A stretch of DNA of 64,000 bases from Escherichia coli (GCF_044324875.1 NZ_CP172185.1); one strand, 5' to 3'. Positions 4,149 through 57,781 are shown, numbered from the stretch's first letter. The notes: generated from the sequence alone by a model not told the origin. Numbers and translations are program-made.

Positions 4149-4718
4149 ATGAAACGACTCATTGTAGGCATCAGCGGTGCCAGCGGCGCGATTTATGGCG
4201 TGCGCTTATTACAGGTTCTGCGCGATGTCGCAGATGTTGAAACGCATCTGGTAATGAGCCAGGCCGCGCGCCAGACCTTATCTCTTGAAACGGATTTTTC
4301 CCTGCGCGAAGTGCAGGCGTTAGCTGATGTGACGCACGATGCGCGCGATATTGCTGCCAGCATCTCTTCTGGTTCTTTCCAGACGCTGGGGATGGTGATT
4401 TTACCCTGTTCAATCAAAACCCTGTCCGGCATTGTCCATAGCTATACTGATGGCTTACTGACCCGTGCGGCAGATGTGGTGCTGAAAGAGCGTCGCCCGT
4501 TGGTGCTCTGCGTACGTGAAACACCATTGCACTTAGGCCATCTGCGTTTAATGACTCAGGCAGCAGAAATCGGTGCGGTGATTATGCCTCCCGTTCCGGC
4601 GTTTTATCATCGCCCGCAATCCCTTGATGATGTGATAAATCAGACGGTTAACCGTGTACTCGATCAATTCGCCATAACGCTTCCTGAAGATCTCTTTGCC
4701 CGCTGGCAGGGCGCATAA
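4149..4718 (+). CDS. ubiX: flavin prenyltransferase UbiX
   Basis: 189 aa, N-terminal MKRLIVGISGASGAIYGVRLL flavoprotein fold; position after purF. Confidence 0.93.
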   Translation: MKRLIVGISGASGAIYGVRLLQVLRDVADVETHLVMSQAARQTLSLETDFSLREVQALADVTHDARDIAASISSGSFQTLGMVILPCSIKTLSGIVHSYTDGLLTRAADVVLKERRPLVLCVRETPLHLGHLRLMTQAAEIGAVIMPPVPAFYHRPQSLDDVINQTVNRVLDQFAITLPEDLFARWQGA

Positions 4719-4727
4719 CTCCGCTGT

Positions 4728-4748
4728 TGCCCTGTTTCAGGGCAATTT
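4728..4748 (+). terminator. candidate hairpin terminator after ubiX
   Basis: Inverted repeat ttgccctg-tttc-agggcaa directly after the ubiX stop; weak T-tract. Confidence 0.4.
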
Positions 4749-4899
4749 TGCAACCGCGATCAAATCCTCGACATTTTGTTTCTGCCATTCAATCGAAACG
4801 CTGCGATTCAACCGCTATACCTGCTATCTTCAACTTCAGGACAATAATGCAACGTCTTATTAACATATTTAACGTTGAATGTTACTGTTGTCGTAATGA

Positions 4900-4915
4900 T
4901 GGCATAAGACCTGCA
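4900..4915 (+). promoter_or_regulatory. candidate sigma54 (-24/-12) promoter for argT
   Basis: tGGcataagacctGCa fits the GG-N10-GC spacing of TGGCAC-N5-TTGCA; about 70 bp upstream of the argT ATG. Confidence 0.5.
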
Positions 4916-4983
4916 TGAAAGAGCCTGCAAACACACAACACAATACACAACATAAAAAAGCCATTTTCACTTGAGGGTTATGT

Positions 4984-5766
4984 ATGAAGAAGTCGATTCT
5001 CGCTCTGTCTTTGTTAGTCGGTCTCTCCGCAGCGGCTTCCAGCTATGCGGCGCTACCGGAGACGGTACGTATCGGAACTGATACCACCTATGCGCCGTTC
5101 TCATCGAAAGATGCCAAAGGTGACTTTGTTGGCTTTGATATCGATCTCGGTAACGAGATGTGCAAACGGATGCAGGTGAAATGTACCTGGGTTGCCAGTG
5201 ACTTTGACGCGCTGATCCCCTCACTGAAAGCGAAAAAAATCGACGCCATTATTTCGTCGCTTTCCATTACCGATAAACGTCAGCAGGAGATTGCTTTCTC
5301 CGACAAGTTGTACGCCGCAGATTCTCGTTTGATTGCCGCCAAAGGTTCGCCGATTCAGCCAACGCTGGATTCACTGAAAGGTAAACATGTGGGTGTGCTG
5401 CAGGGATCAACCCAGGAAGCTTACGCTAACGAGACCTGGCGTAGCAAAGGTGTGGATGTGGTGGCCTATGCCAACCAGGATTTGGTCTATTCCGATCTGG
5501 CTGCAGGACGTCTGGATGCCGCACTGCAGGATGAAGTGGCGGCCAGCGAAGGATTCCTCAAGCAACCTGCTGGTAAAGAGTTCGCCTTTGCTGGCTCATC
5601 AGTGAAAGACAAAAAATACTTCGGTGACGGCACCGGTGTAGGGCTACGTAAAGATGATGCGGAACTGACGGCTGCCTTCAATAAGGCGCTTGGCGAGCTG
5701 CGTCAGGACGGCACCTACGACAAGATGGCGAAAAAGTATTTTGACTTTAATGTCTACGGTGACTGA
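4984..5766 (+). CDS. argT: lysine/arginine/ornithine-binding periplasmic protein
   Basis: 260 aa with signal peptide; highly similar to the adjacent HisJ; upstream of hisJQMP. Confidence 0.93.
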
Positions 5767-5824
5767 TACGTCGCAGGGAAGCTGTACCTGATGGAATGAT
5801 CATCATGGTGCACGCCAGGTTTGT

Positions 5825-5841
5825 TGCACTATCGTAGTGCA
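5825..5841 (+). promoter_or_regulatory. candidate NtrC-type binding site upstream of hisJ
   Basis: Perfect palindrome tgcact-atcgt-agtgca in the TGCACY-N5-RGTGCA format, in the argT-hisJ intergenic region. Confidence 0.5.
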
Positions 5842-5986
5842 TTGAAATGCATACTTAAGCATTTTTAATGAAAAATAATACGTCTAACGGGGCGGGATAT
5901 TTTGCCTTGATGGTCAATTTTATGGCACGATAAGTGTAACAAACCTGTAAATATTCCCTATAAAAAGACTGTCAGTTGAGGACATT

Positions 5987-6769
5987 ATGAAAAAACTGGT
6001 GCTATCGCTCTCTCTGGTTCTGGCCTTCTCCAGCGCAACTGTGGCGTTTGCTGCGATTCCGCAAAACATCCGCATCGGTACCGATCCGACCTATGCGCCA
6101 TTTGAATCAAAAAATTCACAAGGTGAACTGGTTGGCTTCGATATCGATCTGGCAAAGGAGTTGTGCAAACGCATCAATACGCAATGTACGTTTGTCGAAA
6201 ACCCACTGGATGCGTTAATCCCGTCCTTAAAAGCGAAGAAGATTGACGCCATCATGTCATCGCTTTCCATTACGGAAAAACGTCAGCAAGAAATAGCCTT
6301 CACCGACAAACTGTACGCAGCCGATTCTCGTCTGGTGGTGGCGAAAAACTCCGACATTCAGCCGACAGTCGAATCGCTGAAAGGCAAGCGGGTAGGCGTA
6401 TTGCAGGGCACCACCCAGGAGACGTTCGGTAACGAACACTGGGCACCAAAAGGCATTGAAATCGTCTCGTATCAGGGGCAGGACAACATTTATTCTGACC
6501 TGACTGCCGGACGTATTGATGCCGCGTTCCAGGATGAGGTCGCAGCCAGCGAAGGTTTCCTCAAACAACCCGTCGGTAAAGATTACAAATTCGGTGGCCC
6601 GTCTGTTAAAGATGAAAAACTGTTTGGCGTAGGGACCGGCATGGGCCTGCGTAAAGAAGATAACGAACTGCGCGAGGCACTGAACAAAGCCTTTGCCGAA
6701 ATGCGCGCTGACGGTACTTACGAGAAATTAGCGAAAAAGTACTTCGATTTTGATGTTTATGGTGGTTAA
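5987..6769 (+). CDS. hisJ: histidine-binding periplasmic protein
   Basis: 260 aa with signal peptide, type-2 periplasmic binding fold; followed by hisQ-hisM-hisP. Confidence 0.95.
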
Positions 6770-6858
6770 TCGCCATCGGTGAAAGAAAGCCCGCTCCCTT
6801 CGGGTAACCGGAGGGAGACAAGAGGCGGTAATTCACCACACACGACAGGACAGGCTGC

Positions 6859-7545
6859 ATGTTGTATGGGTTTTCAGGTGTTATTTTACAGGGTGCGCTC
6901 GTCACGCTGGAGCTGGCTATCAGCTCTGTAGTGCTCGCTGTAATCATCGGTTTAATTGGCGCTGGCGGTAAGCTCTCGCAAAATCGGCTTTCGGGCCTTA
7001 TTTTCGAAGGCTACACCACGCTGATTCGTGGCGTGCCGGACTTGGTGTTGATGCTGCTAATTTTCTACGGTTTGCAGATTGCACTAAACACGGTGACGGA
7101 GGCGATGGGCGTCGGGCAGATTGATATTGATCCGATGGTCGCAGGTATTATCACTCTCGGTTTTATCTACGGTGCTTACTTTACCGAAACGTTCCGTGGC
7201 GCGTTTATGGCTGTGCCGAAAGGGCATATAGAGGCGGCGACGGCGTTCGGTTTTACTCGTGGGCAAGTGTTTCGGCGGATCATGTTTCCGGCGATGATGC
7301 GTTACGCCCTGCCAGGCATTGGCAACAACTGGCAGGTGATCCTCAAATCTACCGCTCTGGTTTCGTTACTTGGCCTGGAAGATGTGGTCAAAGCCACGCA
7401 GCTGGCAGGCAAAAGTACCTGGGAACCGTTCTATTTCGCCATCGTTTGTGGCGTGATTTACCTGGTTTTCACCACCGTTTCCAATGGTGTGCTGCTGTTC
7501 CTTGAGCGCCGCTACTCCGTGGGTGTGAAGAGGGCTGACCTGTGA
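6859..7545 (+). CDS. hisQ: histidine/lysine/arginine/ornithine ABC transporter permease
   Basis: 228 aa polytopic permease; its stop overlaps the hisM start. Confidence 0.93.
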   Translation: MLYGFSGVILQGALVTLELAISSVVLAVIIGLIGAGGKLSQNRLSGLIFEGYTTLIRGVPDLVLMLLIFYGLQIALNTVTEAMGVGQIDIDPMVAGIITLGFIYGAYFTETFRGAFMAVPKGHIEAATAFGFTRGQVFRRIMFPAMMRYALPGIGNNWQVILKSTALVSLLGLEDVVKATQLAGKSTWEPFYFAIVCGVIYLVFTTVSNGVLLFLERRYSVGVKRADL

Positions 7546-8258
7546 TCGAAATCTTACATGAATACTGGAAACCGTTGTTGTGGACCGACGGTTATCGCTT
7601 TACTGGCGTGGCGATCACCCTGTGGCTGCTGATTTTGTCGGTAGTGATAGGCGGAGTTCTGGCGCTGTTTCTGGCGATTGGTCGTGTCTCCAGTAATAAA
7701 TACATCCAGTTTCCAATCTGGTTATTTACCTATATTTTTCGCGGTACGCCGCTGTATGTTCAGTTGCTGGTGTTCTATTCCGGCATGTATACGCTGGAGA
7801 TTGTTAAGGGGACCGAGTTTCTTAACGCTTTCTTCCGCAGTGGCCTGAACTGTACCGTGCTGGCGCTTACGCTTAACACCTGCGCTTACACTACCGAGAT
7901 TTTTGCTGGGGCAATCCGTTCAGTGCCGCATGGGGAAATTGAAGCCGCCAGAGCCTATGGCTTCTCGACCTTTAAAATGTATCGCTGCATTATTTTGCCA
8001 TCGGCGCTGCGTATTGCGTTACCGGCCTACAGCAACGAAGTGATCCTGATGCTGCATTCTACTGCGCTGGCGTTTACGGCCACGGTGCCGGATCTGCTGA
8101 AAATTGCCCGTGATATCAACGCCGCGACGTATCAACCTTTTACCGCCTTCGGCATTGCCGCGGTGCTCTATTTAATCATCTCTTATGTCCTGATCAGCCT
8201 CTTTCGCAGAGCGGAAAAACGCTGGTTGCAGCATGTGAAACCTTCTTCAACGCACTGA
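7542..8258 (+). CDS. hisM: histidine/lysine/arginine/ornithine ABC transporter permease
   Basis: 238 aa polytopic permease; 4 bp overlap with hisQ. Confidence 0.93.
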
Positions 8259-49429: not shown

Positions 49430-51100
49430 ATGTCAGTAAGCGCATTTAACCGACGCTGGGCGGCGGTCATTCTGGAAGCATTAACGCGTCACGGCGTCAG
49501 ACACATCTGTATCGCCCCTGGCTCGCGTTCTACACCGTTAACGTTAGCGGCGGCGGAGAATTCCGCATTCATTCACCACACCCATTTCGATGAGCGTGGA
49601 CTGGGGCATCTGGCGCTGGGGCTGGCGAAAGTCAGCAAGCAGCCGGTGGCGGTGATTGTGACCTCCGGCACGGCGGTAGCAAATCTCTATCCTGCACTGA
49701 TTGAAGCTGGGTTAACCGGAGAAAAACTGATCCTGTTAACCGCCGATCGCCCGCCGGAGCTAATTGACTGCGGCGCGAATCAGGCGATTCGTCAGCCGGG
49801 AATGTTCGCCTCTCACCCCACGCACAGTATTTCACTGCCGCGCCCGACCCAGGATATCCCCGCACGTTGGCTGGTTTCTACCATCGACCACGCTCTCGGT
49901 ACGCTTCATGCTGGTGGAGTCCATATCAACTGCCCGTTTGCTGAACCGCTGTATGGCGAAATGGACGACACCGGGCTTAGCTGGCAACAGCGTCTGGGCG
50001 ACTGGTGGCAGGACGATAAGCCGTGGCTGCGTGAAGCGCCTCGTCTGGAAAGTGAAAAACAGCGCGACTGGTTCTTCTGGCGACAAAAGCGCGGCGTGGT
50101 GGTTGCCGGGCGCATGAGTGCGGAAGAGGGCAAAAAAGTTACACTGTGGGCGCAAACTCTTGGCTGGCCGCTGATCGGCGATGTGCTGTCGCAAACCGGG
50201 CAGCCGCTGCCGTGTGCCGATCTCTGGTTAGGCAATGCCAAAGCGATCAGCGAACTGCAACAGGCGCAAATTGTGGTGCAACTGGGAAGCAGCCTGACGG
50301 GCAAACGGCTCCTGCAATGGCAGGCAATCTGTGAACCCGAAGAGTACTGGATTGTTGATGACATTGAAGGGCGACTTGATCCGGCACACCATCGCGGACG
50401 TCGCTTAATTGCCAATATTGCCGACTGGCTGGAGCAACATCCGGCAGAAAAACGCCAGCCCTGGTGCGTTGAAATCCCGCGCCTGGCTGAACAGGCAATG
50501 CAGGCGGTTATTGCCCGTCGCGATGCGTTTGGCGAAGCGCAACTGGCGCATCGCATCAGCGACTATCTGCCTGAACAGGGGCAATTGTTTGTCGGTAACA
50601 GCCTGGTGGTACGTCTGATTGATGCGCTTTCGCAACTTCCGGCAGGTTACCCGGTGTACAGCAACCGTGGTGCCAGCGGTATCGACGGGCTGCTCTCAAC
50701 TGCCGCTGGCGTTCAGCGGGCCAGTGGCAAACCGACGCTGGCGATTGTGGGCGATCTCTCAGCACTTTACGATCTCAACGCGCTGGCGTTATTACGTCAG
50801 GTTTCCGCGCCGCTGGTATTAATTGTGGTGAACAACAACGGCGGGCAAATTTTCTCGCTGTTGCCAACGCCGAAAAACGAGCGCGAGCGTTTCTATCTGA
50901 TGCCGCAAAACGTCCATTTTGAGCACGCCGCCGCGATGTTCGAGCTGAAATATCATCGTCCGCAAAACTGGCAGGAACTTGAAACGGCGCTTGCTGACGC
51001 CTGGCGCACGCCAACCACCACGGTGATTGAAATGGTGGTTAACGACACCGATGGTGCGCAAACGCTCCAGCAACTTCTGGCGCAGGTAAGCCATTTATGA
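49430..51100 (+). CDS. menD: SEPHCHC synthase (2-succinyl-5-enolpyruvyl-6-hydroxy-3-cyclohexene-1-carboxylate synthase)
   Basis: 556 aa from ATG at 49430 ([13 protein letters not shown]...), TPP-dependent enzyme; the track ORF from 49079 is an upstream extension overlapping menF. Confidence 0.9.
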
Positions 51101-56132: not shown

Positions 56133-57781
56133 TTGGGACGATACTGAATCAGCACCAGACGCTCCTGACGATCGATGGCATCTGCGGGCGGAATGGCGAG
56201 ACTGTTGATATCTTCATTGCGGTCAACCGAAAGCACGAGTGTAATAATCCCCTCCTGACGATGTTGATTAAGCCAGTTTGCGAACTCATCACCGCTGACA
56301 AATCTCCCTTTCGCATCCGGATAATTAAGGCCGTATTTCAACTCACCTGTCTGGCGATACATGATGATGTCATCGCGTTGCAGGCTCCATGCCAGACCTG
56401 CGGCAACACCGACGCTATCAGTAAGAATATAGCGGCTTGGCTGAAGTGATTCTTGTGTCATCTCGACAAAAAATTGCGGATGTTTTCCTTCCATGACTCT
56501 GTCAGGAATTGAAAATCCTACCAGCAACGCCAGCCCCAGCGGGCAAAGCGCGGCAAAAGACCAGGTCTTTTCGACGTTTGTTAAGGTGTACCAGCCGAAA
56601 AATGCCCATAGCGAAAAAATCGACCAGGCACAAAAGACTTTATAGCTCTCGAAGGTTTGCCACACTGGCGTGTTCATTGGTCCCCATGGGGAGACCACAA
56701 ATGTGGCAATAATGCCAGTGACACCAAAAGTGATGTTAATCCAGCCATTAATCCGCAGCGCCAGAGGATTATTTTTTGCTGCCAGCAAAGCGTAATGCGC
56801 CATCAGCATTGCCAGAGGTGCAAAGCAGGAAAGAATATAGGTGGGCAATTTGCCTTTGGCGACGGAGAAAAACAGCAGCGGCATTATCGTCCAGCTCAAC
56901 AAATAGACGGTTGCGGAATGCTTGCGGTTTTTCCAGCCTGCGTACAGTGCTCCGGGGAGTAATCCCAGCCACGGCAGGCTACCGGCAATGATGACCGGCA
57001 AGTAGTACCAGAACGGAGCTCTATGCTGAGCATCATCCATTGCAAAGCGTTGAATATGCTCAACCCAGAAAAAATAGTGCCAGAAGTCAGGCTCCCGCTG
57101 CGCTATCGCCAGTCCCCAGGGGAGAACCGTCAGTACGCAACTGATGACCGCCAGCCAGCCGTAAATAAAGAGATCTTTCCAGCGTTTTTGCGTTGCAACC
57201 CATGGAAGCACGCTTAATACCGGCACGGCAAGGGCGAGAAAACCTTTGGTCATCACCCCCATGCCGCAGGTGATTCCCAGCAGTAAAAATCCTGCGCTTT
57301 TGCCTTTCCACGTCTGTGCCTGCATTGCCAGCCAGAAGCTGCACATTCCCGCCACCAGCCAGAAGGCAATAAACGGATCGAGCACGGCATAAGTGCCGAT
57401 GGCATAGACAATAAACAATGAGAGATAAATCACTGCGGCGAGTAATGCCAGACGTTTATCGCGCCATAAGCGCAGAGTAAACCAGGTCACCAGCGCGGCA
57501 GTTAACAGGGTCGCAAAGATAACGCCTGCCCGCACACCAAAGTTATTCGCGCCAAATAGCCATTGCCCAATGCTGTTAATCCAGTATCCGGCAATGGGTT
57601 TTTCGAAATAACGTAGCCCTAACAGATGGGGCACAATCCAGTCGCCGGATGCCAGCATTTCCCGACTGATTTCCGCATAACGCGTTTCATCGGGTTGCCA
57701 GAGCAGACGCGTGCTGATCGGTAACAGGTAATAGCAGGCAATAAACGCGAAGAGGCCGATAAGGTAACGTACCGATTTCAT
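56129..57781 (-). CDS. arnT: undecaprenyl-phosphate-L-Ara4N:lipid A Ara4N transferase
   Basis: 550 aa GT-C/PMT-like polytopic glycosyltransferase. Confidence 0.9.

Follow-up and report, generated by a model that had tools for sequence, protein, structure and literature searches.

The described systems closest to the locus reported here are the NtrC sites of glnA, the site upstream of hisJ in Salmonella, and the control region of astCADBE. Sites 1 and 2 of glnA have the same 17-bp dyad format as the site at hisJ, and glnA site 2 (AGCACTATATTGGTGCA) shares its TGCACTA-type half. On the weight matrix described below, the glnA NtrC sites score 19.6–20.7 bits compared with 19.8 bits at hisJ, and a second site lies about 3 helical turns away in both regions (32 bp at glnA and 29 bp at hisJ). 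Both also have sigma70 promoter-like sequence adjoining the site and a sigma54-type element ∼100 bp downstream. However, glnAp2 is a strong sigma54 promoter detected by ChIP (OS37), whereas the hisJ element is weak and has no ChIP detection, and the second site at hisJ is, unlike that at glnA, a half-site alone (3.3 bits).

In Salmonella, an NtrC site upstream of hisJ (the "dhuA" region) is the positional homologue of the E. coli site. The NtrC consensus TGCACC(A/T)4TGGTGCA has been credited to Ames and Nikaido 1985 (EMBO J 4:539) by a later paper (PMC4987338), and the Salmonella diarizonae sequence TGCACCATTTTGGTGCA is literally this consensus. The 1985 footprint may have been on the hisJ site. 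The identity between the Salmonella orthologue and the published consensus suggests that the site has been known for 4 decades, and the hisJ-proximal NtrC site is an already-known regulatory element. Compared with Salmonella, Escherichia has an adjacent 21-bp deletion and C to T changes in the arms, and the sequence analyzed here also has a G to A change.

The astCADBE region resembles hisJ in the order of its elements—i.e. NtrC site, ARG boxes, and a −24/−12 element—and both operons serve to scavenge nitrogen from arginine and basic amino acids, with an NtrC ChIP peak at each. At astC, ArgR is said to be an architectural co-activator. The astC promoter is a strong ChIP-verified sigma54 promoter (OS17), while at hisJ ArgR is reported to act on a sigma70 promoter, which it represses weakly.

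The window (the whole 64-kb stretch of DNA that was analyzed) comes from an Escherichia chromosome and carries genes in the order purF-ubiX-argT-hisJ-hisQ-hisM-hisP, and its argT-hisJ spacer of 220 bp is equal in length to that of K-12 (Table 1). A first-pass annotation, made from the sequence alone, had described a perfect 6-5-6 palindrome of the NtrC format at 5825–5841, located between the argT stop and the hisJ start, with a ggtgca half-site about 18 bp upstream. All of these features are present, with the argT stop at 5764–5766 and the hisJ ATG at 5987. The sequence at 5825–5841 is TGCACTATCGTAGTGCA, and its arms are in fact longer than described, with TGCACTA and TAGTGCA pairing over 7 bases around a 3-base center (a 7-3-7 palindrome); the half-site is found at 5807–5812, 18 bp away from start to start.

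Table 1. Coordinates of genes and regulatory features in the argT-hisJ region of the window.
Feature	Position	Strand	Basis and remarks
Probable argT NtrC site	4728..4744	.	TGCCCTGTTTCAGGGCA; TGCCCTG-TTT-CAGGGCA; 14.1 bits, second-best in window
argT sigma54 promoter	4899..4915	+	ATGGCATAAGACCTGCA; 14.8 bits; upstream of argT, 926 bp from hisJ NtrC site
argT	4984..5766	+	Upstream gene; stop codon before spacer
Weak upstream NtrC half-site	5796..5812	.	ATGATCATCATGGTGCA; 3.3 bits; center 29 bp upstream of main site
NtrC (GlnG) site, strong	5825..5841	.	TGCACTA-TCG-TAGTGCA; matrix, K-12 ChIP-seq interval, homology; species-typical G at 5836
Sigma70-like promoter TTGAAA-16-TTTAAT	5842..5869	+	RpoD gSELEX (PMC3946193); −35 at 5842–5847, −10 at 5864–5869
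Probable ArgR operator	5846..5884	.	Two 18-bp ARG-box-like repeats, AATGCATACTTAAGCATT and AATGAAAAATAATACGTC, 3 bp apart; inferred
Candidate sigma70 PhisJ	5902..5931	+	−35 TTGCCT at 5902–5907, 18-bp spacer, extended −10 TGgCACGAT at 5923–5931
Sigma54-like −24/−12 element	5922..5938	+	ATGGCACGATAAGTGTA; 12.8 bits; 97 bp downstream of NtrC site
hisJ	5987..6769	+	ORF; annotation in matching E. coli genomes; first gene of hisJQMP, an NtrC-controlled operon

The palindrome is an exact match to TGCACYN5RGTGCA, for which 0.02 matches are expected by chance per 64-kb window; such a match was present in 2 of 100 dinucleotide shuffles of the window, and 5825–5841 is the only one in the 64 kb even with 1 mismatch allowed. 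We also derived an NtrC motif from the 13 best-supported ChIP-seq intervals of Brown et al. 2014 (PMC4066584), with hisJ and argT excluded, coordinates converted from NC_000913.2 to NC_000913.3, and 150 bp added on either side of each interval. De novo EM on these 13 regions returned a 17-bp palindromic motif (consensus TGCACCATTTTAGTGCA), the sites of which include the classical glnA sites and the glnL site, and a symmetrised weight matrix was built from 15 sites. A weight-matrix scan had been proposed as a check on the palindrome, and it gives 5825–5841 the top score in the window, at 19.8 bits (rank 1 of 63,984 positions; the next is 14.1 bits). This score is reached in none of 30 shuffles, is exceeded by 2 of the 15 training sites, and is on par with the glnA and glnL sites. 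The 2 best matrix scores in the 64 kb fall in the 2 spacers that precede Ntr-regulated genes. A text search of the literature with the site sequence itself returned no paper.

Published NtrC ChIP data at hisJ, also named as a check by the first-pass annotation, agree with this assignment. Interval 12 of Brown et al. 2014 (PMC4066584; NC_000913.2 2424941–2425021) is enriched 23.7-fold and assigned to hisJQMP, compared with 5.4-fold enrichment upstream of argT; Table 1 of the same study credits its gene-expression evidence for hisJQMP to Zimmer 2000. The hisJ ATG is at 2426788 in NC_000913.3 and at 2424810 in version 2, an offset that agrees with the argT promoter coordinates of 2 other papers, and a gapless alignment of the spacer to K-12 places the interval at 5776–5856 of the window. 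The orthologous K-12 site (2424956–2424972 in NC_000913.2) is contained in the interval with the 2 centers 17 bp apart, at a ChIP resolution of ∼80–200 bp for an 80-bp interval and in a K-12 derivative with a G allele rather than in the window's strain. These data place NtrC on the orthologous K-12 spacer in vivo under nitrogen limitation, and within those 80 bp, the 17-mer that NtrC contacts is presumably 5825–5841. In vitro, hisJ and argT are both missing from the 93 peaks that NtrC gSELEX yields at a 40% cut-off (PMC8743547).

The position of the hisJ interval is unusual. In all 11 comparator operons, the NtrC ChIP interval is centered on the sigma54 promoter motif (Bonocora 2015), at −48 to +11 bp, and in 8 of these operons the strong NtrC sites (at least 11 bits) are located 68–152 bp upstream of the sigma54 promoter. 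Centering on sigma54 promoters may arise when looped NtrC becomes cross-linked to promoter complexes. hisJ departs from this pattern: its interval is centered on the NtrC site, with the sigma54-like element 114 bp farther downstream, which counts against a local sigma54 partner. A hidden NtrC site in the 3′ end of argT, which would be predicted if the ChIP interval lay downstream of its site as elsewhere, was considered and rejected, as no match of at least 9 bits is found there. Separately, the best NtrC match at gltI in the IS5 region of K-12 (TGCACTCTTTTAGTGCT, 17.6 bits) is located 84 bp downstream of the sigma54 motif center, on the transcribed side, and adjoins the IS5 insertion of MG1655.

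The perfect symmetry of the palindrome exists because of an A at 5836. K-12 (TGCACTATCGTGGTGCA) and all other Escherichia sequences inspected have G at this position, including 4 other Escherichia genomes; E. albertii reads TGCACTATTGTGGTGCA. The 56-mer around the site with the G allele is found at 100% identity in 5111 of 5426 complete E. coli genomes, while the window's own 56-mer with A at 5836 is in no complete E. coli genome. Compared with the closest complete genome (isolate SC418), 5836 is the sole difference across 4479–7906 of the window. The change looks neutral because the 2 alleles score equally on the NtrC matrix (19.8 bits with A vs. 19.7 bits with G) and because TAGTGCA/TGCACTA halves are common among genuine NtrC sites (e.g. 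glnL, glnK, gltI, and glnA site 2); it could also be a sequencing error. As such, the description "perfect palindrome" is right for the window but does not extend to the conserved state of the site, since the symmetry comes from a private single-base variant with no gain on the matrix.

Conservation across Enterobacteriaceae was assessed with 1 genome per species carrying HisJ, which returned 80 loci. An NtrC site of at least 12 bits is found between −260 and −60 from the hisJ ATG in 73 of 78 species, and the density of NtrC matches is 6.2 per kb in this slot region vs. 0.21 per kb across the other 425 kb. Of the 59 matches elsewhere that reach at least 14 bits, 58 are the argT-upstream site. 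In a 14-species alignment, 5825–5841 matches the Salmonella (TGCACCATTTTGGTGCA / TGCACTTTTTTGGTGCA) and Citrobacter sites column for column, so the conservation check proposed at first pass also favors the site. The upstream GGTGCA is kept in at least 90% of the 14 aligned species, and the half-site aligns with Salmonella GGAACTATCACGGTGCA (13.3 bits).

Across species, the NtrC sites fall into 3 phased slots with centers at about −153, −175, and −205 from the hisJ ATG. Other genera have 2 or 3 full NtrC sites, whereas Escherichia has 1 strong site and the 3.3-bit half-site. Escherichia, including E. albertii, carries the 21-bp deletion immediately downstream of the NtrC site (junction between about 5844 and 5845; alignment columns 125–145). 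This deletion removed the −153 slot and shifted the strong site into that position, and its length corresponds to 2 helical turns, which keeps the helix face relative to the downstream elements.

Both the matrix and ChIP mapping and the cross-species conservation support the original reading of the palindrome as an NtrC site, and we hold with high confidence that 5825–5841 is a functional one. Its identity as an NtrC site and a role in hisJQMP control are, taken together, likely. In the features compared, the hisJ site is like an NtrC enhancer in all but the partner promoter and a second full site. The sequence-only reading thus picked out a genuine NtrC enhancer before a classic nitrogen-scavenging transporter, which makes it a rediscovery. 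What goes beyond the textbook is the private and apparently neutral base change, along with the fact that public data do not pinpoint the partner promoter of a strongly occupied site.

The best explanation for the palindrome is a high-affinity NtrC~P upstream activator sequence (enhancer) in the hisJQMP control region. An NtrC~P dimer would bind the 17-bp dyad, the weak conserved half-site 29 bp upstream would aid the assembly of the active oligomer, and the oligomer would raise hisJQMP transcription under nitrogen limitation. The most likely partner would be the sigma54-type element at 5922–5938, which would put the site ∼116 bp upstream of the predicted start. This element overlaps the candidate sigma70 PhisJ, and contact would be made by DNA looping across the putative ArgR operator. 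We propose the local sigma54 promoter as the partner only tentatively, at somewhat less than an even chance.

The sigma54-like element was scored with a matrix built from 41 intergenic sites mapped by ChIP-seq in Bonocora et al. 2015, with argT left out. The element has GG at −24 but GT instead of GC at −12, and it scores below 39 of the 41 ChIP-verified sites. Its Citrobacter orthologue (ATGGCACGATAACTGCA) reaches 18.3 bits, and Citrobacter and several other genera have strong sigma54 motifs of 17.6–18.4 bits at this place. The 97 bp between the site and the element is within the 68–152 bp that separate strong NtrC sites from sigma54 promoters in 8 comparator operons; like the helical phase kept by the 21-bp deletion and the strong motifs of the other genera, this geometry favors a local sigma54 partner. 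No sigma54 signal at hisJ is present in E. coli ChIP-seq tables and supplements, in Salmonella ChIP-chip and microarray data, or in RpoN gSELEX with or without NtrC; hisJ is absent from the Bonocora supplements, and both hisJ and argT are absent from those of the Cho 2014 sigma-network study. The same E. coli sigma54 ChIP-seq caught motifs as low as 8.7 and 9.7 bits elsewhere. Judged by GG/GC dinucleotides together with holoenzyme occupancy, 5922–5938 does not classify as a sigma54 promoter.

Among 77 species, which are not phylogenetically independent, the strength of the NtrC site and the local sigma54 score are not significantly correlated (rho = 0.17, P = 0.14), and 10 of the 12 species without a credible sigma54 element, again not independent, keep an NtrC site of at least 14 bits. 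The element could be a weak activator-dependent promoter, and the conserved TGGCACGAT block could just as well serve a sigma70 PhisJ as its extended −10. An antisense sigma54-like sequence (CTGGCGTGCACCATGAT) at 5802–5818 coincides with the center of the ChIP interval and was also considered; it was rejected, as it lacks the −12 GC, is in no ChIP list, and has a score (8.2 bits) below that of the weakest ChIP-verified sigma54 site (8.7 bits).

The hisJ spacer also contains candidate elements for sigma70 and ArgR. RpoD gSELEX selected the spacer with the RpoD holoenzyme alone and predicted TTGAAA-16-TTTAAT for hisJQMP (PMC3946193). The −35 of this predicted promoter, TTGAAA, begins 1 bp past the NtrC site and lies across the 21-bp deletion junction, and therefore exists only in Escherichia. 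A different paper, summarizing earlier work, states that a sigma70 promoter drives hisJQMP during exponential growth, that ArgR represses it weakly by binding 2 ARG boxes located 17 bp ahead of the PhisJ −35, and that the sigma54/NtrC promoter belongs to argT (PMC6640053). From its sequence, 5846–5884 is probably the ArgR operator; the AT-rich block TGCATAnnTAnnC...TG..AA within it is invariant in 14 species. TTGCCT begins exactly 17 bp after 5884, and this ARG-box spacing, along with the invariant TTTGCC and TGGCACGATA blocks, makes 5902–5931 the candidate PhisJ. A simple sigma70 scan of 4650–6050, which needs T at the last −10 position plus 9 of 12 matches and misses extended −10 types, returned no promoter. 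The ARG-box-like pair thus has the NtrC site on one side and the core promoter of hisJ on the other, as in the element order of astCADBE.

The palindrome had also been proposed at first pass as an enhancer for either promoter. This is imprecise, as the argT sigma54 promoter is not in the spacer but 926 bp upstream, with a conserved NtrC-like site of its own. The argT promoter sequence (ATGGCATAAGACCTGCA) is identical to the E. coli ChIP-seq site OS22 and to the Salmonella STM2355 site, and scores at least 13 bits in 76 of 77 species. The NtrC-like site at 4728–4744 in the ubiX-argT spacer is a perfect 7-3-7 palindrome located 171 bp upstream of the argT sigma54 motif center, and no base of it differs among Escherichia, Salmonella, Citrobacter, Kluyvera, and Enterobacter asburiae. 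As the probable argT enhancer, it would account for the weak peak 13 of Brown. This site and the one at hisJ are alike in format, in cross-genus conservation, and in preceding genes for paralogous binding proteins. They differ in that the argT-upstream site is of a weaker type (TGCCC...GGGCA, 14.1 bits, and 5.4-fold in ChIP) and has a clear sigma54 promoter 171 bp downstream.

The hisJ site may have other targets. One would be the argT sigma54 promoter 926 bp upstream, with hisJQMP induced by read-through along argT-hisJQMP. NtrC enhancers are known to act over kilobases and from downstream. In line with such distal action, the argT promoter is kept in nearly all species while the local hisJ element is often lost and the NtrC sites persist, ChIP enrichment is much higher at the hisJ-proximal site than upstream of argT, the argT-hisJ spacer has no convincing intrinsic terminator, and several groups treat argT-hisJQMP as 1 operon, controlled by replacing argTp alone. 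We nonetheless consider this unlikely, as the argT promoter already has a perfectly conserved NtrC-like site at a canonical 171 bp, the constant spacing of the phased slots from the hisJ start points to local action, and a Salmonella promiscuous-activator study lists argT but not hisJQMP as upregulated, so that read-through is not obviously large. Alternatively, the site could modulate sigma70 transcription, either by occluding TTGAAA-16-TTTAAT or by competing with ArgR to relieve the repression of PhisJ. NtrC occludes the sigma70 promoter glnAp1, and at hisJ the TTGAAA −35 practically abuts the site in a spacer that the RpoD holoenzyme selects unaided. The ARG-box-like repeats at 5846–5884 start 4 bp downstream of the site and are invariant across genera, other genera have a slot-1 NtrC site at nearly the same position beside ARG boxes, the hisJQMP sigma70 promoter is under weak ArgR repression (PMC6640053), and sigma54 occupancy at hisJ was not detected in E. 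coli or Salmonella studies. However, the TTGAAA −35 is an Escherichia-only product of the deletion junction and the NtrC sites are much older, repression would not account for the reported induction of hisJQMP under nitrogen limitation, and anti-repression of a weakly repressed promoter would have only a small effect. Modulation of this kind is therefore quite improbable.

The palindrome could also act without binding any protein—i.e. as an RNA hairpin that terminates or stabilizes the argT transcript at its 3′ end. A 7-bp stem with a 3-nt loop is possible 59 nt after the argT stop, and the spacer RNA folds somewhat better than shuffles (z = −2.3). Yet a rho-independent terminator (GC-rich hairpin plus U-tract) is rejected here, with no U-tract following 5841 and no call from a terminator scan, and the minimum-free-energy fold pairs the arms with other sequences. 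In addition, the arms keep the specific letters TGCAC/GTGCA across genera, and not mere complementarity, with a fixed loop length, which argues for a protein-binding site, and the same matrix also finds this type of site upstream of argT, a place where no transcript would be expected to end. We regard the hairpin as very improbable. A palindrome arisen by chance and without function is hardly credible: about 1 exact match to the loose consensus is expected per 4.6–5 Mb genome (extrapolated from the rate per 64 kb), but this one is under a ChIP-seq peak, its position and format are conserved in more than 70 species, and it precedes a known Ntr-regulated operon. A relic without present function takes up what remains once the local sigma54, distal argTp, and sigma70/ArgR readings have been given their shares. 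It is also conceivable, though doubtful, that in Escherichia and several other enterobacterial lineages the hisJ NtrC enhancer no longer has, or has never required, a sigma54 partner nearby. The 21-bp deletion would then have removed a slot, placed the strong site beside the ArgR operator, and created the sigma70 −35, with the −12 GC gone; the site would either enhance the argT promoter from ∼0.9 kb downstream or modulate sigma70/ArgR control. If true, this would be an unusual mode of NtrC action and would explain why the ChIP signal is on the site and not on a promoter. Should the gap in the partner promoter be real, hisJ would be a tractable case for the retention or re-use of an enhancer as its sigma54 promoter decays.

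Two further observations concern the window as a whole and the spacer within E. coli. The 2 top sigma54 matrix matches in the window are CTGGCACCACGGTTGCT (15.1 bits; 50660–50676, minus strand), which is an exact match to TGGCACN5TTGCW, and CTGGCACTATTTTTTCT (15.3 bits; 57067–57083, minus strand), and both outscore the genuine argT promoter. The argT-hisJ spacer (5767–5986) is more conserved within E. coli than the flanking coding sequence: it is at least 99% identical in 4205 of 5421 matching genomes, while the 1.4-kb region that includes argT (4700–6100) is 95–99% identical in nearly all.
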